Made by a program: the position numbers and the translations under genes
Shown here: one piece after another, positions 9,914 to 53,145 of the stretch
Numbering within the stretch: position 1 is the first letter of the stretch
How the letters are laid out: the number at the start of each line of letters is the position of its first letter
The notes under the pieces: generated by a model
What the model was told of the DNA's origin: nothing
What the model saw: the letters and a program-made list of their open reading frames with translations, nothing else
The model's database searches: none
From: a virus
Taxonomy: Duplodnaviria; Caudoviricetes
IMG/VR virus record: IMGVR_UViG_3300033069_001774
Span: 1 to 64,000 of that record
Reading direction: 5' to 3' (one strand)
Length of the DNA stretch: 64,000 bases

Positions 9914-9952
9914 GCACACCGCCGGGGAGACTCGGCGGTGTGCCTTTCTTTT
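9914..9952 (+). terminator. Intrinsic terminator
   Basis: GCACACCGCCGGG-GAGA-CTCGGCGGTGTGC followed by CTTTCTTTT. Confidence 0.8.
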
Positions 9953-15876: not shown

Positions 15877-16734
15877 ATGCCTACGCCTACATTCCCCGAC
15901 CTGCGCCCCGATCAAGCCGCCAAGGCAGATCCGATCGCCGTCCGCTACCTCCAGCAAGCTCTGATCAGTCAGGGCTACACCGTGAAACCCACGGGCAAAT
16001 ACGACAACGCTACCATCGGCGCAGTGATGGACTTCCAGGCCACACACCTTGGCAGCAAGGGCACCCACCTGCTTGTTGACGGCTGGGTGGGTAAGGCCAC
16101 GTGGTGGGCCGTCCAGAATCCGTCAGGCGCTGCGCAGATCAGCGACATCGACTCCATGATCCGCAAGGGTCTGTCGGCTGATCGCAAAGCCATTCTGCGC
16201 ACCGCGTTCTCCGACCACGCGCGTGGTGTGAAAGAAGTGCCGGACGGCGCCAACTACGGCGACGGTGTCACGCGCTACCTCGAAGGTATCGGGCCTGCGT
16301 TCTGGTGCTGCGCCGCGGTGAGCACCTGGCACAAGGACGCCAAGGATGCCTGGCCATTCGGGACGCGCTTCGTCTCTGTGGCTGCGCTCTGGAAGAAAGC
16401 CGGCGAACTCGGCCGCGCCGTGCCCATCAGCGCACGTCCAGTCCCTTGTCCCGGGGATGCGTTCGTGTTCCTGTATCGCAACAGCCGTGGCGCCTTGACC
16501 GGTCTTGGCCACATCGGGCTGGTGGCCGCTACGGCTGCGAACGGTGTGATGTTCAACACCGTGGAGGGTAACGTGGGCAACCGTGTGAAGGTCAGCCTGC
16601 GCGACATCGACAACCCAGTGCTCGTGGGCTTCGTCGACTTCTTCGGGGATCGTGCTGCTGTGCTTCCGAAAGTGGAGCGCGGACTCTTCAGCAAATCCGA
16701 AACGGCAGACTCATCACTGGCAGGAACTCGCTAA
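15877..16734 (+). CDS. Endolysin: peptidoglycan-binding domain plus CHAP domain
   Basis: LQQAL..G.YD..T..AV..FQ...L.VDG.VGK.TW, then FWC, GHIGLV and TVEGN. Confidence 0.85.
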   Translation: MPTPTFPDLRPDQAAKADPIAVRYLQQALISQGYTVKPTGKYDNATIGAVMDFQATHLGSKGTHLLVDGWVGKATWWAVQNPSGAAQISDIDSMIRKGLSADRKAILRTAFSDHARGVKEVPDGANYGDGVTRYLEGIGPAFWCCAAVSTWHKDAKDAWPFGTRFVSVAALWKKAGELGRAVPISARPVPCPGDAFVFLYRNSRGALTGLGHIGLVAATAANGVMFNTVEGNVGNRVKVSLRDIDNPVLVGFVDFFGDRAAVLPKVERGLFSKSETADSSLAGTR

Positions 16735-16738
16735 AATT

Positions 16739-17332
16739 ATGTTCGTCGGAGAACTACAACCAGATGAACTGTTCCTGCTGAATAGCCTCATCAATTGTGT
16801 GTGCGGCAGCACCATGACAAACATGACGTCGGATACTGCGCGGTGTGAGCATTTCGGATGTGCTCGCTACCACGTGGTGTACGAACGCCCGCAGATCCCG
16901 CTGCAGCGTGCACGCGTGCCCCGCCCCAGCACGCCCCCTGTGTCACCCCCGTCAGCAAGCCTGGCTCCTGCCTGTGACACCACAGTCCCGCTGGGGTTCC
17001 TGCGACAAACCGGGCGCACGTACCGCATGCTGCAACACGCGGTGCAGCTTGTGGATCAGGACATACCTGTGACCATCGTCGTCCTGGACTCCGTGCAGGC
17101 GCGGCATATGCGCAGCAAGATTGACCACGCGTTCCCACGGCTATCGGGAGAGGTGCGCATCATAAATCTGGCATCCGAGCCCCGGTTCGAATTGGAGACT
17201 TTACATATCACCGGCGTTGACGCACGTGGTGTGCTGTTCGATCATTATGTTCTCGAACGTCGTGCAGAAAAGCTTCTGGCTGCACTGCACTACTTCGATC
17301 CGCCTGTTCCGCGACCGCCGCAGAGCTGGTGA
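16739..17332 (+). CDS. Small degenerate P-loop protein resembling a terminase ATPase fragment
   Basis: LRQTGRTYRML Walker-A-like and GVLFDH Walker-B-like motifs; N-terminal Cys cluster. Confidence 0.5.
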   Translation: MFVGELQPDELFLLNSLINCVCGSTMTNMTSDTARCEHFGCARYHVVYERPQIPLQRARVPRPSTPPVSPPSASLAPACDTTVPLGFLRQTGRTYRMLQHAVQLVDQDIPVTIVVLDSVQARHMRSKIDHAFPRLSGEVRIINLASEPRFELETLHITGVDARGVLFDHYVLERRAEKLLAALHYFDPPVPRPPQSW

Positions 17333-17340
17333 TAAAAGCT

Positions 17341-17463
17341 TGCGGCGCAAGGTAGTCATTACGCAAATGTTGAGAGTCCCTGGCTGGGAGGATAAAACAA
17401 GGGCGTTGAAAAAGATCTGTTTTTCTTGGTTGGGTCTTCAGATCGATGACACCTTGCGCCGCA
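17341..17463 (+). ncRNA. Putative structured RNA
   Basis: Perfect 13-bp stem TGCGGCGCAAGGT/ACCTTGCGCCGCA extended by GTCAT/ATGAC; internal hairpins; T-run downstream. Confidence 0.55.
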
Positions 17464-17496
17464 TTTTTATTTTAAATTTATCTTGCGCGGTACAAC

Positions 17497-17597
17497 GGCT
17501 GCGACAATACTCGAAACCTGTCGCGTTCCGAACAGGGGATGAGATCAACTGGCGCAGGTCGTCAGCAAGATGCAACCTCCAAGGAATTGCGGCAGCC
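17497..17597 (+). ncRNA. Putative structured RNA
   Basis: GGCTGC..CAAT / ATTG..GCAGCC closing stem, inner CCTGT/ACAGG; abuts tRNA-Met. Confidence 0.35.
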
Positions 17598-17601
17598 CAA
17601 T

Positions 17602-17674
17602 TGCAGGGAGAGCCAGTGCTCCGGTGAGCCTCATAAGCTTGCTTTGGTCGGTGCAACTCCGTCCCCTGCGTCCA
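17602..17674 (+). tRNA. tRNA with CAT anticodon (Met), atypical D and T arms
   Basis: Acceptor TGCAGGG/CCCTGCG, anticodon loop CTCATAA, T-loop TGCAACT, encoded CCA. Confidence 0.75.
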
Positions 17675-17759
17675 ATTTTCCTCACATGCACTTCTTGCGA
17701 CTCTCGCCATCACGTAGTTACCGACTCTCCTGAACGGAGAAGTTGTGGACGTTGATTTT

Positions 17760-17849
17760 GGAGGGCTCCGCTTAGTGGAAGTAAACAAGTCTTGAAAACT
17801 TGGGGTGTCGTTAGTAGCGCACGGCGTTCGATCCGTCAGCCCTCCGCCA
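17760..17849 (+). tRNA. tRNA-Ser(TGA)
   Basis: GGAGGGC/GCCCTCC acceptor, CAAGT-CTTGAAA-ACTTG, long variable arm, GTTCGAT, GCCA end. Confidence 0.9.
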
Positions 17850-17902
17850 TCTTCTAGGTTCGAATCTATGGACAACGTACCAGTTTATGCTCATGTGGTT
17901 GT

Positions 17903-18436
17903 ATGAGCGACAAACCTAAAGAACAACGCGCGGCCGAGGCTGGCTACACTGTGAATAAGGAGGGCACGGAGATTAGGAATCCCCAAGGCATCAAAGTTGC
18001 CACATTCGAAAGCAAAGGTTATCGCATATTCGACTTCGGTCCTAAAGCCGACAGAAAACACATTTACGTTCATCGGTTTCAAGCTTGGTTCAAATTCAAC
18101 ACGACCATGTATGGTGCCGGGCTGCAAGTAAGACATCTCGATGGTAATTCCAGAAACAACCACGCGGACAATTTGGCATTAGGCACGCAATCTCAAAATA
18201 TGCTGGATCGTCCGGCTGCAGACAGAAAAGCGCATGGTTACCAAACTTCACGACACATCGCCAAACACGATCACGCCGCCGTGATCAGCTATTACAAAGC
18301 GCACGGTTTCAAAGCTACGCTAGCAGCCTTCAACATCTCGAGTAAAGGCACGCTCAGTTTCATTTTAAACAAAACACAAACAGGCGTTCCAGTGACAGCG
18401 CAAGAACGCCCGAAAAGGAAAAATTCCAAAGGATGA
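17903..18436 (+). CDS. HNH homing endonuclease
   Basis: YVHRF...VRHLDGNSRNNHADNLALGTQSQN; more AT-rich than flanking genes. Confidence 0.9.
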   Translation: MSDKPKEQRAAEAGYTVNKEGTEIRNPQGIKVATFESKGYRIFDFGPKADRKHIYVHRFQAWFKFNTTMYGAGLQVRHLDGNSRNNHADNLALGTQSQNMLDRPAADRKAHGYQTSRHIAKHDHAAVISYYKAHGFKATLAAFNISSKGTLSFILNKTQTGVPVTAQERPKRKNSKG

Positions 18437-18511
18437 CGGGGCTGACCTGCACCTCAAGGCTCTCGCGAACGTGAGCCAGGCGATAATTCAGGTGTTTGAT
18501 CAGCCCCGTCA
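18434..18511 (+). ncRNA. Putative structured RNA (long interrupted hairpin)
   Basis: Perfect 12-bp TGACGGGGCTGA/TCAGCCCCGTCA; inner CACCT/AGGTG and GGCTC/GAGCC. Confidence 0.55.
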
Positions 18512-18520
18512 AAGTTTTCC

Positions 18521-18612
18521 GGATGCTTGCCCGAACGGTAAGAGACCAGCTTGCTAAGCTGAGGTCAGCCCCTCACAAGGCTGTGCAGGTTCGAGCCCTG
18601 CAGCATCCGCCA
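18521..18612 (+). tRNA. tRNA-Ser(GCT)
   Basis: GGATGCT/AGCATCC acceptor, loop TTGCTAA, long variable arm, GGTTCGAG, GCCA. Confidence 0.9.
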
Positions 18613-18614
18613 AT

Positions 18615-18698
18615 GAGGTACATGGGGAACTGGGGTTCCCGCTCGGTTGTAACCCGAGTGCTCCGGCTGGCAGAGTTCGATTCTCTGGTACCTCACCA
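18615..18698 (+). tRNA. tRNA-Tyr(GTA)
   Basis: GAGGTAC/GTACCTC acceptor, CTCGG-TTGTAAC-CCGAG, GTTCGATT, ACCA. Confidence 0.85.
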
Positions 18699-18898
18699 TT
18701 TTCATATTGCAGGCGCCACGTACGTACATAGACTGCGCCCCTCATTACAACTCTCCAACGCCAGGATGACCTGCGAGAGTTGCCCTATCTAATGGTGCGC
18801 AAGTGCCGCGGTATCTCCTGGGATCCGTAGCGGAGGCACACCAGACGCTAACTGGAATTAGCGGCAGTCGGTGGAAGCCCGACAACCACAAAGGATCT

Positions 18899-19016
18899 GG
18901 ATTCGGCGGAACTCGGGAACAGCAGTACCGCGTCGGTTGCAGCGGGGATCGTGACCCCAAGCTGAAGGGTGCAACTCCCTACAGCGCACGGTAGCAAAAG
19001 TCGACCCGCCGAATCC
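18899..19016 (+). ncRNA. Putative tRNA-like structured RNA
   Basis: Perfect 11-bp GGATTCGGCGG/CCGCCGAATCC; inner TACCG/CGGTA, a CAGC-GGGG..CCCC-GCTG arm and a T-arm-like AGGG-TGCAACT-CCCT. Confidence 0.55.
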
Positions 19017-19061
19017 CCTTCTCTTACTTGCAGCGTAAACAGCGGGCGGCTATCGTGGCGT

Positions 19062-19397
19062 ATGGAACAGCACACAGTCAATCTTCTAGGCACCGCTTCC
19101 GTCGGCGTGGCGGGTCCAACCACAGGCGCCGGCTTCCCGCGCGCCACGCACCGCCACCACATCTTTCAGATGATCCTGGGAGCCGGCGGCACACCCGTGG
19201 TGAAACTGGATTTCTCCATCAACGGTACGGACTGGCAGGAGTTCGCCACGCTTAGCAGCGCCGGGGCGCTCTACCGCATCGACACCAACACACCCTTTCC
19301 GTATGTGCGTGCGCGCCGCACCGATACCGATGCGCTCGACGCCAACAAGGTGCGCGTGCTGCTTCGCTCCGCCGGTGACGCAACCAACCTGATGTAA
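19062..19397 (+). CDS. Small beta-sandwich protein, possibly structural
   Basis: V.L..S.NG.DW...PFPYVRAR pattern. Confidence 0.6.
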   Translation: MEQHTVNLLGTASVGVAGPTTGAGFPRATHRHHIFQMILGAGGTPVVKLDFSINGTDWQEFATLSSAGALYRIDTNTPFPYVRARRTDTDALDANKVRVLLRSAGDATNLM

Positions 19398-19398
19398 A

Positions 19399-19584
19399 AT
19401 GTCCTGGGGTCTTGCCACACACCTGGTACGCGAACACGGGACTGCCTGCGGTATTCCCTCGGGAACTGTGCGCCCCACGTCGGACATCACCAAAGTAGAC
19501 TGTCTCAAATGCCGTAAGACCCGCTTGTTCCGCGGGCTGCGCAGCGAGGCACGCGCAAAACGCACCGCTCACCATGCGCACTAA
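19399..19584 (+). CDS. Small zinc-finger protein
   Basis: H...C....CLKC. Confidence 0.55.
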   Translation: MSWGLATHLVREHGTACGIPSGTVRPTSDITKVDCLKCRKTRLFRGLRSEARAKRTAHHAH

Positions 19585-21424
19585 AGCCATCAACCTGCTG
19601 GTCGACAACGCACTGCCCGAAGACATGCGCGATCCTGCGCGACAACTGGACGCCAAGAGCGTCGGGCGCATGCTGCACATGGTCGCATCTTTCCATCCGG
19701 AGAAGTATGCCGAGATCACCAAGAACATCGGCGACATCGGGCGGCACGCTGCTTACTGGCGCGGCGCCACCATCGGTCTCGACGACCTCGAAGATCCCAT
19801 CGACACGCAGCACGCATTGCGGGAGATGGATAAACAGGAAGCTGCGCTCCGTAAAAAGCTGGTCAACGACCCTGAGGGTTTCAAGGAAGCGCGAGAAGCG
19901 CTATGGCACCGCACGGCCGCCACACTCGAGCGGGAGTCGATGGGCGCGGCCCTGCACAAGAATAACTCCATCGGCTTGGCGGTTGCCTCTGGTGCGCGCG
20001 GTAAACCCCTGCAGCTGCGAAGCATGTTGTCCACCCCGGCAGTGTTCGCAGACAGCCGGGGCCGCACGATCCCTATCTTCGCACGGCGCTCGTATAGTCA
20101 AGGTGTGTCACCTGCTGAGTTCCTGGCGGGCACGCACGGCGCACGTACGTCGGTTATCGCCACCAAGCGTGCCACGGCCAAGGGTGGTTTCCTCAGCAAG
20201 GTGCTGGTGCAGAACGCCGGCAACTTGGTGGTCACGGAGGAAGATTGCGGCACGCACAACGGTATCGACGTCGACGCCAGTGACCCCACCATCAAGCTGC
20301 GCTTTCTGGCGCAGGACGCTGCAGGATTAAAGTCCGGCGACTTGCTGGATCGCAAGGCCTCCGCCAGGCTGGCTGACCGCCACAACGGCACGTTGTTGGT
20401 GCGCAGTGCTCTAACCTGCGAATCTCCGCGCGGTGTCTGTGCTAAATGCATTGGGGCGGATCCTCGCGGTAAGCTGCGCCCCATCGGGTTTGCAGCCGGC
20501 GTTACAGCAGGCCAGGCGATCGGTGAGCCGATTACGCAAGGCGCGCTCAACACCAAGCACGTCTCCGGTGCTGCCTCCGCCAAGAAAGAGTTCTCCGGGT
20601 TCGACGTGATCAACCGCTTCGTGCAGGTGCCCGACGAATTCCCTGACCGTGCACCGGTGGCGGAAGAAAGCGGCAATGTGGTGGTCAACAAGGCGCCGCA
20701 AGGCGGGCACTATGTTCGCGTGGGTGAGACCGAGCATTACGTTCCCGCCGGTGTCGAGCTGCGCGTTAAAACGCACGACGTCGTGGAGAAAGGCGATGTG
20801 CTGGCCGACGGTCTCGCACGCGCGGATGACATCGTCCGTCTGCGCGGGTTGGGATCTGGCCGCCGCTACTACGCGGAGCGCCTGAGTAAAATTCTGGAGG
20901 ACAGCGGCATGACACCAGACCGCCGCAACGTCGAGATGATTGCGCGTGCCGCCATCAACCACGTGCGCATTGAGGATCCTGATCTAGCGGGCGATGGTGT
21001 TCTGCCCGACGACGTCGTGCCGTACTCCGACATGATACACAGCATTCAAGCTCCCGACGACGCCACTTACGACGCGCCGGACAAAGCTCACGGGCGCTAC
21101 CTTTACGCACCGGCGCTGCACTACACAGTGGGCACGCAGCTCACACCGCGCATGGGCAAGCGCATCAAAGACGCAGGTATCACCAATGTGTTTACCAGCC
21201 CTAAAGCGCCAGGCTTCCATGCGGACATGACGCGCCTGCAGACCGCGACACACGCCAACCCGGACTGGCTCGCCTCGCTGAATACCTCCTACCTGCAGAA
21301 GCAAGTGACGGAGCGCGCCATGCGCGGCCAGGACACCAACATCGACGCCAACATCAACTACGCTCCGCGCTTGGCCGTTGGAGAAAACTTTGGCGTAAAG
21401 TCAAAAACTACAGGAATGTTCTGA
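19574..21424 (+). CDS. rpoC: Phage DNA-directed RNA polymerase beta' subunit, C-terminal part (split subunit)
   Basis: SGARG, GAR...TA..G.L (bridge helix), EEDCGT, VRS.LTC...GVC.KC.G (Zn site), GQAIGEPITQ..L.TKH (trigger loop). No NADFDGD motif. Confidence 0.9.
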   Translation: MRTKAINLLVDNALPEDMRDPARQLDAKSVGRMLHMVASFHPEKYAEITKNIGDIGRHAAYWRGATIGLDDLEDPIDTQHALREMDKQEAALRKKLVNDPEGFKEAREALWHRTAATLERESMGAALHKNNSIGLAVASGARGKPLQLRSMLSTPAVFADSRGRTIPIFARRSYSQGVSPAEFLAGTHGARTSVIATKRATAKGGFLSKVLVQNAGNLVVTEEDCGTHNGIDVDASDPTIKLRFLAQDAAGLKSGDLLDRKASARLADRHNGTLLVRSALTCESPRGVCAKCIGADPRGKLRPIGFAAGVTAGQAIGEPITQGALNTKHVSGAASAKKEFSGFDVINRFVQVPDEFPDRAPVAEESGNVVVNKAPQGGHYVRVGETEHYVPAGVELRVKTHDVVEKGDVLADGLARADDIVRLRGLGSGRRYYAERLSKILEDSGMTPDRRNVEMIARAAINHVRIEDPDLAGDGVLPDDVVPYSDMIHSIQAPDDATYDAPDKAHGRYLYAPALHYTVGTQLTPRMGKRIKDAGITNVFTSPKAPGFHADMTRLQTATHANPDWLASLNTSYLQKQVTERAMRGQDTNIDANINYAPRLAVGENFGVKSKTTGMF

Positions 21425-47927: not shown

Positions 47928-50900
47928 ATGCCACAGCCCATCGATCGCTTCACCCGTCGCGCAGCTTCCTGTACTGTGGAGCTGGCGCGCGCGGTGTGGA
48001 TCACACCCATGCGCCCCGCAGAGGCCTGCGCCACACCGCCCGTCACGCCGCCCCTGCAGTACATCACACCGCATGCAGTGCCTGTCGAGGCGGAGGCGCT
48101 ACCGTTACCTGCAGCGCTGAGTCTGCAGAACTCCCGGTTCTCTCTCCAGTGCGCGGACTTGGACGGTGCTGGTCCGCATGGGGCCGAAGTCATCATCCCT
48201 GCTGCATCGGTAGGGCGTTCCTTCTTCTGGACTGACGTACCTGATATCAGCGTTACCCAGCTGGCGTTTGTTTCGCAGCTGCCGGAAACTGCACTGCAGG
48301 ACATCATCGGCGGCGCGAACGTCGGGACTATTGCGCGCCTCACTGATGTGCAGGCGGCTTTTGTGACGCAGAGTCTGGACACTCTGCGTGCTGCCATTGA
48401 CGCCGAAGTTTACGCATCGGCTGTGAGCACGATCCGCTGCGTATGGCAATCTGAGCAGCAAACTGAGAGCTGCTTGGGCGCTGGCTACATGCTGTCTACA
48501 CAGACAGCGGCGGGCGATTTGGCGGGCGTGCGTAACCCGATTGTGCTTGGGGCGGGCTTTGCTGAAAGCAGCACCAGCCAGAGCGAAGCCAACGCCATTG
48601 CTAAAGCAGAGGCCAGATCACGGCTGCGGTGCTTGTTCGGCAACACGGAACAAACAGTGAAGTGCGAGGATCTAGGTTACGCCGACCCTGTGCCGACGGA
48701 TGATCCAGACGCACCGCCAGTGTCTACGGATGGTAGATACCGCGTGGGTAGTGTGCACATCAGCGCCGGAGTTTATTTCTCCGCGGAATCCCAGAATGAT
48801 GCAGACGCAAGGGCGCGCGACGCCGGCGCTAGCTTGCTGTCGTGCTTTTACGTGAACGCGCCATTGGCGCTCAGCTGCAAAGACGCATACGGCATCGAGG
48901 GTGCATTCCAGCAACCAGTAGACTACAGCACCAAGTTGCGAGGCAACCCAGTGGCGGCTGGCGCAGGTAGTTTTGTGTTGGACGCGCCTGGCAGCTCGCA
49001 AGCAGCAGTGGACGCAGCGGCAGAGCTAGCACTGGAGAGCTTTCTGCTTTGCACTTTCAAAAATGTGGCCATGGAGGTGACGTGCCCAAGCCTCATTGTA
49101 GGTGGCGTAACCTACATCGCGGCCGGCACAGAATCCATCAGCGTGCCTGCCGGGGAGTATGAGGGTAACACGCAGGCGGAGGCTGATGCATTGGCCCGCG
49201 CTTCAGCGTTGTTGCAGCTGGGTTGTCAGTACTGCAACGCGTTCATCCCACCTGCGTGTTACCCGCCGTCCTATACGCCTAAACCAGGGCAGGCAATTCC
49301 GCTGGCTGACGTGGGTCCCGACTGGAGCCCTGACGTCATTCTTGGCATGGCTGCAGGTACTATCTGTCAGCCCGACCCCGAAGACGCGCAGTTGCTAGCC
49401 AGCACGGTGGCGCTACAGCCTGTGCCGGTGACACAGCTCGCGACGGGCTGTACATACACGAATGATGAAATGTGGTTCGGGTGCCTGTCGCAACTCCCAG
49501 GCTCCCCGACGCTTCCCCGCGGTGGTTACTTTTCCCCAGCCTACGCCGCTGCAGCATTGCCGGTGCAGTTCGCGAGCTTGGCGCAGTCCGCGCAGCTGTC
49601 CCCTTTCTGCACTCCTTCTCCGATATCCGCGACGCCCTACATCGTGCTCCCTGCCGGGGCGCAAGCCGTGAACTCTCGCGACGTGCCTGCGGGTGTGGAT
49701 CCGAAAGTTCATGCCAACTACACCGCGAAGCTTTACGGACTGGCGCTGCTGGATTGCTTCTTCGCGACGCCAGAAATGCCTCTCGACTGCGCCAGCGCTT
49801 TTGAACCACAGCCGTTCATCCAAGAGGATGTAGCCAAGGCGGACGGGCAGCGTGTACGCTTGGTGTTACCCGCCGGGGCAGGTACTTCTTATGCTTCCTT
49901 TTTGGCTGCTTACGAAGAAGCCAAGCTGACCGCGCAAGGTGTGCTGAACTGCTACTACGAGAGCCCCACGCTGCAGGTGAGGTGCTGGAGTCAACAAACC
50001 ACGACTCCCGGCAGCCTGCCTGATGTTGTGAGTTCGGAAAACGACGTGTGGGTTTATGGCGATGGCACTGTGCGCTTAACCACGAGCACTGACGGTGATG
50101 TTACGTACTCGGACATCACGCTTCTGCCTGCACAGCTGGGGTCAGTGGGAATGCCGCTGGTGCTGGTGCGCGGTAGCGAACGCTCTACCATTTCCAAAGA
50201 GGATGCGCGACTGCGCGCATTGCGCAACGCGGTCAGCCTTCTGGATTGTACGTCGCAAGCTTTGGTGGCATTACTGCCTGTGTGCAGCGACAGGATGCGC
50301 GTCAAATGTGGTGCCACAGTGGAAGTCAATCCAGCAGCACCGTACACAGCAGGCACTGGCGACAAAACGCCCGCAGGGTGGCGCTATCGCGACGGCGAGC
50401 TGCATGTGGGGGACGGGCACAACTATGTCATGAGCCGCGGCGGTGTGTCCACCAACCCCTGGACGCGCCTAGACTTGGGCTGCTCTGACGATCCAGTGGG
50501 TGGTTGCGCCGGCTTGGGGTTGGAGTTGCCAGTGTGCTTTGAGCAAGGTCGCGATAAAGAGGAGGCCAACCGGCGCGCACACACGGCGGGCCGCGCAATG
50601 CTGACGTGCACAGGCTCCCCGACGAATCTTCCTGACATCCCAGGGGGTGGGGGCGGTGGCGGGGGCAACAATGGAGGGGCGCCCGAGGGGTGTCCGCTGT
50701 TCGTGTATCCTGTGCTTGACGAAAACGATCAACCGATCTCGGGTAAATTTGGCGTGACCGCCGGCTACATAAACGCGGAAGAGGTGCGTAAAAACACAGT
50801 GGATGGTGCGCCTATTCGCGATGACCCGCCATTCCGGCTCTCAATCAGCAACGGTTACATCTACTGCGGCATCAAGTACCAGCTCACGTTTATCGAGGGT

Positions 50901-52514: not shown

Positions 52515-52972
52515 AAGGCAGCATAACCAGCACAGGCAACATTCAGTGGCGCCTTTTTCGCAGAGACGCCACGGGCAATCTGCGAGCTTGCGTCATGGTG
52601 ATCGAGAAAGACACCAGCATCGTGCTGACAGAGAAATGCGAGGAGGATACGCCCGCACCTCCAGAGGTCGCACAAACCGACTCATCGGGACCTCTAGCAC
52701 ACCTGACTAAGTTCGGCATCCCGCACAAGATCAAGGCCGGTGCCGATGGGCATGCGGTCATTGAAGTCTACCCCCACAAGGCACCGGTGCGCACAAAACG
52801 CATCATGCGTTTCTTCGATTTGACGACCCCTTGCGATTTCCCACAGTGTGAGGAGCTTCGCCGGAGGTGGCTGGAAGAGAAAGAAGCACTGGGTGAAAAT
52901 TGCACGGACTGCGCTGCCAGCGCGCTGCAGCGCAGGTACATGCATCAGTTGGGTGATATTCTCCCCCCGTGA
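52511..52972 (+). CDS. Cys-motif protein
   Basis: PCDFPQCEELR..W..E....NCTDC..SAL.RRY. Confidence 0.65.
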   Translation: MKGSITSTGNIQWRLFRRDATGNLRACVMVIEKDTSIVLTEKCEEDTPAPPEVAQTDSSGPLAHLTKFGIPHKIKAGADGHAVIEVYPHKAPVRTKRIMRFFDLTTPCDFPQCEELRRRWLEEKEALGENCTDCAASALQRRYMHQLGDILPP

Positions 52973-53145
52973 AGCAGCCCGCTACCATCCCTGGAATCCA
53001 CAAGTTCCATGATTTACACCAAGCGTATTTGCGCGAATGGCGCATCGAGGCCGCACGGTGCGGGGGCGGCTGCTTCACTTCCGCCCTAGTGCAACGCTAT
53101 GCGCGCCTGCTACAGCAACGCCAAGCCCTGGAAGCGAGACCTTGA
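52969..53145 (+). CDS. 58-aa CxxxC protein, similar to the C-terminus of the upstream gene (absent from the ORF track)
   Basis: GTGA overlap; (M)KQPATIPGIHKFHDLHQAYLREWRIEAARCGGGCFTSALVQRYARLLQQRQALEARP. Confidence 0.55.
   Translation: MKQPATIPGIHKFHDLHQAYLREWRIEAARCGGGCFTSALVQRYARLLQQRQALEARP

Follow-up and report, generated by a model that had tools for sequence, protein, structure and literature searches.

Structured RNA elements under selection in the tRNA island of an uncultured phage, including a candidate tRNA-mimic RNA

Small RNAs encoded in phage tRNA clusters have been known since T4, where two such RNAs of unknown role are transcribed from the tRNA region (PMC3014915, PMC9697503). 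Linkage between phage tRNAs and homing endonucleases is common; the tRNA-Tyr of T5 and T6 is pitted against retron-Eco7 and Septu, and phage tRNA supplements directed against tRNA-cleaving defences are spread by homing endonucleases, among them SegB (PMC13096335). The YrlA RNAs carry conserved T and D stem-loops and a GNCGAAN0-1G motif, their arms follow the order T, acceptor-like stem-loop and D, and some members are RNase P substrates (PMC4201824). Here, we analyzed an island (17341-19016) in which tRNA genes alternate with structured units. It lies in a 64-kb stretch of DNA, hereafter the window (positions 1 to 64,000 of IMGVR_UViG_3300033069_001774), which belongs to a 101.9-kb uncultured virus record estimated to be ~50% complete. 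The units are named U1 (17341-17463), U2 (17497-17597), U4 (18434-18511), U5 (18821-18898) and U6 (18899-19016), and a further hairpin lies at 18748-18782. They are real, selected RNA elements, new but of a known general kind. Our preferred reading, to which we give a probability of about 0.5, is that these selected elements act on the plus strand, U1 and U4 mainly as transcript-end structures, U2 as a leader, and U5 and U6 together as a discrete, stable, tRNA-derived mimic RNA.

The setting of the island resembles that of T4 species 1 and 2 (RNAC and RNAD), small stable RNAs encoded among phage tRNA genes (PMC3014915, PMC9697503). A homing endonuclease gene lies nearby in both phages. The island differs from them in host range, phage group and an odd UGNAA variant of the T-loop, and shares no sequence similarity with them by blastn. 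As in T4, the units sit within the phage tRNA region; one 193-nt contig of an RNA library equals 18825-19017, but a contig neither proves RNA ends nor excludes DNA. The likeness to YrlA consists in a long stem formed from both RNA ends, a cap with a T-arm look-alike and a size of ~100-200 nt. Unlike YrlA, the units have no D-arm look-alike, a different arm order and no match to a Y RNA family at E≤10; GNCGAAN0-1G is unmatched, the nearest string being GCCGAAUC, and no Ro60/TROVE gene is present in the 101.9 kb (a half-genome).

The earlier note on this DNA had described units closed by strong stems, several of them abutting tRNAs or each other, and both descriptions held. The U1 stem (17341-17353/17451-17463) is a perfect 13-bp helix followed by a bulged A and 5 pairs, those of U4 (18434-18445/18500-18511) and U6 (18899-18909/19006-19016) have 12 and 11 bp, and the arms of the hairpin 18748-18782 are CAACTCTC/GAGAGTTG. 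U2 ends (17597) 4 nt before a tRNA-Met-like gene and U4 (18511) 9 nt before a tRNA-Ser gene, the latter is 2 nt from a tRNA-Tyr gene, and U5 and U6 (18898/18899) adjoin with 0 nt between them. The 101.9-kb record contains 15 perfect inverted repeats with stems of 11 bp or more and loops of up to 120 nt, compared with 4.5 in shuffles, and 4 of the 15 fall in the 1.7-kb island. Fold z-scores were -6.1 for U1, -5.7 for U4, -3.5 for the hairpin 18748-18782 and -3.0 for U6.

Comparative DNA came from one close relative, L045, an ENA metagenome contig whose RNA polymerase (RNAP) is 97% identical in amino acids; the RNAP relatives P0003 (86%) and P0004 (76%) lie outside the DNA comparison. Identity to L045 at third codon positions is 67-76% in the flanking genes, with 88% in the open reading frame (ORF) starting at 19062 and 50% in the HNH endonuclease gene. 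Identity to L045 is 93% for U1, 92% for U2, 94% for the hairpin 18748-18782, 98% for U6, 81% for U5 and 62-84% for the spacers; third positions of the ORF upstream of U1 reach 76%, against the 93% of U1 itself. On this sequence evidence, the elements are conserved far above the neutral level and appear to be under purifying selection. A two-sequence consensus fold contained 8 compensatory pairs per 65 differing columns in the RNA units and 14 per 455 in coding controls, an excess that supports the predicted folds, short of a proper covariation test. The check for covariation between homologues proposed in the earlier note, made here with L045, found both compensatory and wobble changes in helices. 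Wobble-only changes in U6 and U1 fit the plus strand alone, and the structured elements are assigned to that strand because these changes pair only in plus-strand RNA. The six structured units of the earlier note have real stems and are new RNA elements, but they do not form one class: one is terminator-like, one is without a comparator and one has boundaries contradicted by L045. No match to 16501-19600 was found in L053, a 1.5-kb fragment holding part of the RNAP gene and ~460 nt upstream of it, and the IMG/VR relatives (RNAP identity ≤59%) gave no DNA match to the island except one tRNA-Ser.

The putative mimic is encoded on the plus strand at the right end of the island. U5 (18821-18898) looks like a tRNA-derived module, with a 6-bp hairpin (H4, 18846-18863), 3 nt, and then a T-arm-like hairpin (H5, 18867-18883, GUCGG-UGGAAGC-CCGAC, with the loop UGGAAGC) that resembles the T-arm of the tRNA-Met-like gene. 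Three pairs of H4 show compensatory changes relative to L045. The 5' end of U5 overlaps an alternative plus-strand hairpin of the two-sequence consensus fold (H3, 18794-18842), where one A-U pair is compensated to C-G, two further changes are one-sided and no pair is broken. U6 (18899-19016) is a long interrupted stem of 118 nt with an 11-bp base, capped by two hairpins, the first with a 7-nt loop and the second, 1 nt further on, a T-arm look-alike (AGGG-UGCAACU-CCCU). Only two differences separate U6 from L045, and through them a C-G pair and the G-C pair next to it become a U-G/G-U tandem. Upstream of both units, the plus-strand 35-nt hairpin (18748-18782) carries a U-A to G-C compensatory change.

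U5 and U6 each contain an arm of ~5 bp with a 7-nt loop of the form U-N-N-R-A-N-N, as in a T-arm, which U2 lacks. The window holds four GGTGNAANNCC sites, three of them in the island, as the T-arm-like hairpins of the tRNA-Met-like gene, U5 and U6. Position 2 of the loop in the T-like arms of U5 and U6 is G, not U, which is atypical for tRNA. Neither unit has a CCA end or a recognisable cloverleaf: the T-like arm and the closing stem of U5 lie 9 nt apart, and U6 ends in ...GAAUCC followed by CCUUCU. The T-arm of U6 and, in essence, that of the tRNA-Met-like gene (GGG-UGCAACU-CCC) match the consensus of the tymovirus tRNA-like 3' element (Rfam RF00233). Unlike members of that family, the tRNA-Met-like gene and U6 score 25 and 12.7 bits against a cut-off of 40 and occupy an internal site in a DNA phage; U6 also has neither a CCA end nor any visible pseudoknotted acceptor, and the resemblance is confined to one hairpin. 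In L045, both hairpin loops of U5 (18852-18857 and 18872-18876) have UGAAA in place of the UGGAA of the window, the same G-to-A change in each loop, and no pairing partner was found for them. Pairing of these two changes with the two C-to-U changes of U6 was rejected, as the registers misfit (by eye).

Expression data consisted of assembled contigs, in which depth and ends are only hints and uncovered parts of the island carry no weight as absence. In a mosquito metatranscriptome (X18), a single 193-nt contig corresponds to 18825-19017 with zero differences, and nothing else from the 1.8-kb stretch was found there. Both contig ends lie within 4 nt of the structure-predicted ends 18821 and 19016, a match that would be unlikely, by a rough estimate, if coverage of DNA or a long message were low and random. 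U5 and U6 are read as one RNA because this contig bridges their junction, and 18821-19016 is probably one discrete RNA of ~195 nt. In an activated-sludge metatranscriptome (X20), a 151-nt contig (17558-17711) bridges U2, the tRNA-Met-like gene and 37 nt beyond it, with one substitution and three deleted bases in the U2 part and an identical tRNA part; this contig fits a precursor. The earlier note had proposed a polycistronic precursor releasing small RNAs. The recovery of U5-U6 as a discrete contig from an RNA library agrees with this proposal, but U1 is terminator-like, U4 is a plain rod at the HNH stop codon and the closing stem of U5 is broken in L045.

U1 (17341-17463, plus strand) is a 123-nt Y-shaped element with a 13+5 bp closing stem and two inner hairpins, starting 6 nt past the stop codons of ORF 16652-17332. 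As in a terminator, its GC-rich 13-bp stem ends in GCGCCGCA and is followed by UUUUUAUUUU, a U-run at 17464-17473, and stem and U-run are both kept in L045. Its conserved 97-nt branched insert is atypical for a Rho-independent terminator, and a short terminator of the typical type elsewhere in the genome (9914-9943) has no insert. A terminator scan did not call U1 because the loop limit of the tool is 8 nt. The differences from L045 cluster in one inner helix, where a change of AA/GG to UG/CA adds two pairs in L045, and include one U-A to U-G change. U1 looks like the terminator of the upstream gene with a conserved branched insert, and not like part of a polycistronic tRNA precursor. U2 (17497-17597, plus strand) is a 101-nt junction element with two one-sided pair-keeping changes and zero compensatory pairs relative to L045; the fold of the window alone has a third hairpin that L045 does not keep, and an extended closing stem fits better. 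U4 (18434-18511, plus strand) is a 78-nt rod hairpin with a 12-bp base, running from the HNH stop codon almost to tRNA-Ser(GCU). It lies in a block missing from L045 (18417-18706) and is without comparative support; a contig from a freshwater DNA run (X7) covers 18260-18685 with zero differences and places the U4 arrangement in a second sample. The 5' arm of U4 (GGGGCTGACCT, 18438-18448) is perfectly complementary to 11 nt of the variable arm of tRNA-Ser(GCU) (18562-18572), and U4 also holds a near-copy of that arm (CCTCAAGGCT). This complementarity could reflect an alternative pairing in the precursor or be the trace of a duplication.

Rfam searches, a check that the earlier note had proposed, matched the units to no known family at the gathering score or at E≤10. 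The tRNA model RF00005 gave no match at E≤10 on 18700-19030 or 17330-17605, and GOLLD, ROOL and HEARO/omega RNA gave none at the gathering score or E≤10. Weak Rfam matches to twister-sister (17 bits), snoRNAs, CcsR1 and EBER2 were judged to be chance, and the pairs of the twister-sister match are not kept in L045. A link to IscB was also rejected: IscB is much larger than 177 aa, and the HNH_3 ORF of the island, with that length, is far too small. Neither a covariance model of U6, run on 35 related phage records, nor exact scans of viral and prokaryote genome collections for its core gave any match, and the whole island had no blastn match among 50,697 phage records. A protein scan of genome contigs returned only distant matches (≤36% identity), in bacterial genomes and metagenome-assembled genomes. 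In one relative (G003), a gap inside the tRNA cluster was unstructured (fold z -0.1). The suggestion of the earlier note that the RNAs are ligands of the phage RNAP drew no support, since RF00013 gave no match at E≤10 and the folds are branched, not a single rod. 6S RNA is a single rod of ~180-200 nt with a central bubble.

In the mechanism that we favour, the branched structure of U1 would end the upstream transcript by means of its stem and U-run, and U2 would be a structured 5' leader released by RNase P cleavage at the 5' end of the tRNA-Met-like gene. U4 would be the 3' hairpin of the HNH message, the HNH-linked cassette also bringing tRNA-Ser(GCU) and tRNA-Tyr. U5-U6 would be one stable RNA of ~195 nt built of tRNA-derived parts, in which a hairpin with a 6- or 7-nt loop precedes a T-loop-like UGNAANN hairpin. 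From general tRNA biology, the units abutting tRNAs may be freed by host enzymes of tRNA 5' and 3' processing, and the closing stems may protect them from exonucleases; as a tRNA mimic, U5-U6 may bind some tRNA-recognising factor. The mimic might inhibit or occupy some host factor able to recognise the shape of tRNA, such as a tRNA-cleaving defence nuclease or a tRNA-processing enzyme, and be a counter-defence RNA in an HNH-mobilised island with long-variable-arm tRNAs, a role that we regard as rather unlikely. The endonuclease of the island is of the HNH type, unlike SegB, a GIY-YIG enzyme whose gene, segB, is the homing endonuclease gene beside the T4 tRNA region. A decoy role against tRNA-targeting defences, suggested in the earlier note for anticodon nucleases, is conjectural but attractive because the canonical tRNAs are all of the long-variable-arm type, the tRNA-Tyr cassette is linked to an endonuclease and there is a precedent (PMC13096335). 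The systems of that precedent resemble the island in having tRNA-Tyr and long-variable-arm tRNAs beside a homing-type endonuclease in a variable cassette, but they concern real tRNAs and not extra structured units (PMC13096335). The present case combines selection with a build from tRNA-derived parts, a characteristic T-loop variant and a link to a mobile HNH/tRNA cassette, and makes U5-U6 a concrete candidate for tRNA mimicry in the conflict over tRNA-targeting immunity, within the limits of an uncultured phage and two sequences.

Several observations weigh against the proposed discrete RNAs. The fold z-scores of U2 (-1.1) and U5 (-1.9) are weak, so that these units as drawn are not significant by energy alone, and the closing stem of U5 (GGAUCC/GGAUCU) loses 2 of its 6 pairs in L045, whereas H3 fits both sequences. 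A single comparator gives two-sequence data, which cannot yield a proper covariation test. Contig ends prove no RNA ends, an RNA library can carry DNA, and one contig (X16, probably DNA) runs from 18943 in U6 through into ORF 19062. Neither a TROVE gene (PF05731, E≤0.1) nor an RtcB gene is present in the 101.9-kb record (~50% complete), and no binding partner for the RNAs was found. Finally, other closed-stem units of ~100 nt with perfect stems of 11-15 bp occur at 52969-53078 of the window (intergenic, starting at a stop codon, fold z -3.3), at 91848-91944 of the record (intergenic) and at 49163-49264 of the window (inside a 1062-aa ORF). Some units of the island may therefore be ordinary transcript-end structures, and part of the pattern is probably a genome-wide habit of transcript-end or processing structures.

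The last point leads to the explanation that competes best with ours, in which all units act in cis, as terminators, RNase III or RNase E sites or hairpins stabilising the ends of mRNA or pre-tRNA, and no free RNA exists. We consider it possible but less than likely. It would account for the position of U1, 6 nt past a stop codon and with a U-run, for U4 as a simple rod starting at the HNH stop codon, for the similar long closed stems in the gaps 52969-53078 and 91848-91944, and for the pyrimidine-rich tail after U6, which is followed by 45 nt of 100% conservation before ORF 19062. However, conservation in U1 and U6 is highest in their inner branched parts, of which simple end hairpins have no need; the typical short terminator at 9914-9943 does without an insert, and the RNA-library contig matches U5 plus U6 alone.

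A second explanation treats 18707-19061 as a structured 5' leader that regulates the operon of ORF 19062 and RNAP beta', for example as a terminator/antiterminator switch. A core gene follows the stretch directly, L045 matches 19017-19063 at 100% identity, the X16 contig continues from 18943 into ORF 19062, and an alternative 7-nt pairing (18807/18926) survives in part in L045, where one G-C pair has become A-U. Two of its seven pairs nevertheless break in L045, and the X18 contig stops at 19017. Moreover, the leader is not needed for ORF 19062, because relatives that lack the island have a gap of only 50-72 nt upstream of the homologue of this gene. We find a regulatory leader distinctly improbable.

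Alternatively, U2, U5 and U6 could be functionless tRNA pseudogenes, decaying in the course of tRNA-cluster turnover. Turnover is evident among the relatives, whose tRNA content ranges from 0 to 23 genes in different places, and the variable arm of tRNA-Ser(UGA) is disrupted in L045. U5 has the layout of an anticodon arm plus a T-arm, with a would-be anticodon GGA in the window and GAA in L045. Decay is at odds with the identity of U6 (98%) and U2 (92%) to L045, neutral sites being mostly at 67-76% (88% at the lowest-divergence neighbour), and with the H4 pairing, kept by compensatory changes. The Rfam tRNA model gives no score for U2, U5 and U6; any tRNA ancestry must therefore be old, yet the units persist. 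These observations leave pseudogenes very unlikely. That the stems arose by chance in a GC-rich intergenic stretch, as the unremarkable fold z of two of the six units (U2 and U5) might suggest, is scarcely credible in view of the tests run, given the enrichment of long inverted repeats, the conservation and the compensatory changes.

tRNA genes were searched with ARAGORN at the default threshold and at a relaxed 80% threshold (-ps80). Of the four tRNAs reported in the earlier note, three (Ser-UGA, Ser-GCU and Tyr-GUA) were called by default; the fourth (Met-CAU) appeared only at 80% and is non-canonical. The relaxed threshold added only this gene and did not call U2, U5 or U6, and no further tRNA was found in the whole record. 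CCA is encoded in all four. The tRNA-Met(CAU)-like gene (17602-17674, plus strand) is called with -ps80 in L045 as well as in the window. Its D-loop is 4 nt long and lacks GG, its T-loop reads UGCAACU, and its Rfam match to Tymo_tRNA-like (25 bits) is below the cut-off. It is 94.5% identical in L045, with two compensatory pairs in the anticodon stem. Between it and the next tRNA, a plus-strand spacer hairpin read from the sequence (17724-17743) keeps its stem in L045 with a different loop. The class II tRNA-Ser(UGA) (17760-17849, plus strand) has a C-G to U-A compensatory change in the acceptor stem and a variable arm that no longer forms a stem in L045, and the Rfam tRNA model does not match it at E≤10. 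tRNA-Ser(GCU) (18521-18612, plus strand; Rfam tRNA 42.4 bits) and tRNA-Tyr(GUA) (18615-18698, plus strand) are also class II. All three canonical tRNAs of this half-genome are of long-variable-arm (class II) types.

A gap of ~1.7 kb separates the stop codon of ORF 16652-17332 from the ATG at 19062 and has a GC content of 53%, compared with ~61% around it. Its sole convincing ORF encodes a free-standing 177-aa HNH endonuclease (17903-18436, plus strand; Pfam HNH_3 5.9e-9, PHROG HNH endonuclease 1.6e-15), whose L045 allele is only 69% identical in nucleotides and 50% at third codon positions. Directly after this ORF, a ~290-nt indel relative to L045 (18417-18706) comprises U4, tRNA-Ser(GCU) and tRNA-Tyr(GUA). 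The HNH module (~17850-18747) is much more diverged than its surroundings (flanks ~90%) and differs by the tRNA cassette; the HNH/tRNA block looks like a mobile cassette. Thirteen nucleotides of the HNH ORF (18121-18133) are perfectly complementary to 19022-19034, just after U6, where ~0.02 such matches are expected by chance in 1.8 kb (an estimate); the HNH side is not kept in L045.

On the right edge of the island lies a conserved 111-aa ORF (19062-19397, plus strand), its frame fixed by the codon-position pattern. In relatives this core gene comes before the RNAP beta' half; in L008, a homologue with 30% identity lies directly upstream of RNAP. The 47 nt between U6 and its ATG (19017-19063), 100% identical in L045, are the most conserved stretch of the region, and no obvious Shine-Dalgarno sequence was seen in them. 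Sigma-70-type promoter matches found in a scan are not kept in L045 and were not used. The upstream neighbour, ORF 16652-17332, is an endolysin-like gene. In L003 and L046, a 283-286-aa ORF occupies its position and is followed without a gap by the ORF 19062 homologue and RNAP; other relatives have different genes at this spot. Their tRNA genes, 0 to 23 per relative, lie elsewhere in the genome, and the IMG/VR relatives (RNAP identity ≤59%) have no tRNA within 5 kb upstream of RNAP. From this synteny without the island and the variable gene and tRNA content, the island is a lineage-specific accessory insertion at a variable locus, between an endolysin-like gene and a small ORF followed by RNAP beta'.

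The C-terminal half of a bacteria-like RNAP beta' subunit is encoded at 19574-21424 (616 aa). Homologues of this half sit on contigs of ~200 kb, and the host genome of the island is that of a ~200-kb-class phage. The stretch is present in wastewater, freshwater and riverine metagenome runs. Many of the RNAP beta' homologues (P0002, P0003, P0007-P0010 and others) have 750-1030 aa, and the long ones carry PF01079, PF05203 and PF14528 domains, none of which is found in the 616-aa copy of the window. These are Hint/intein and LAGLIDADG domains, and because many homologues carry them, inteins are common in the RNAP beta' gene of the relatives.

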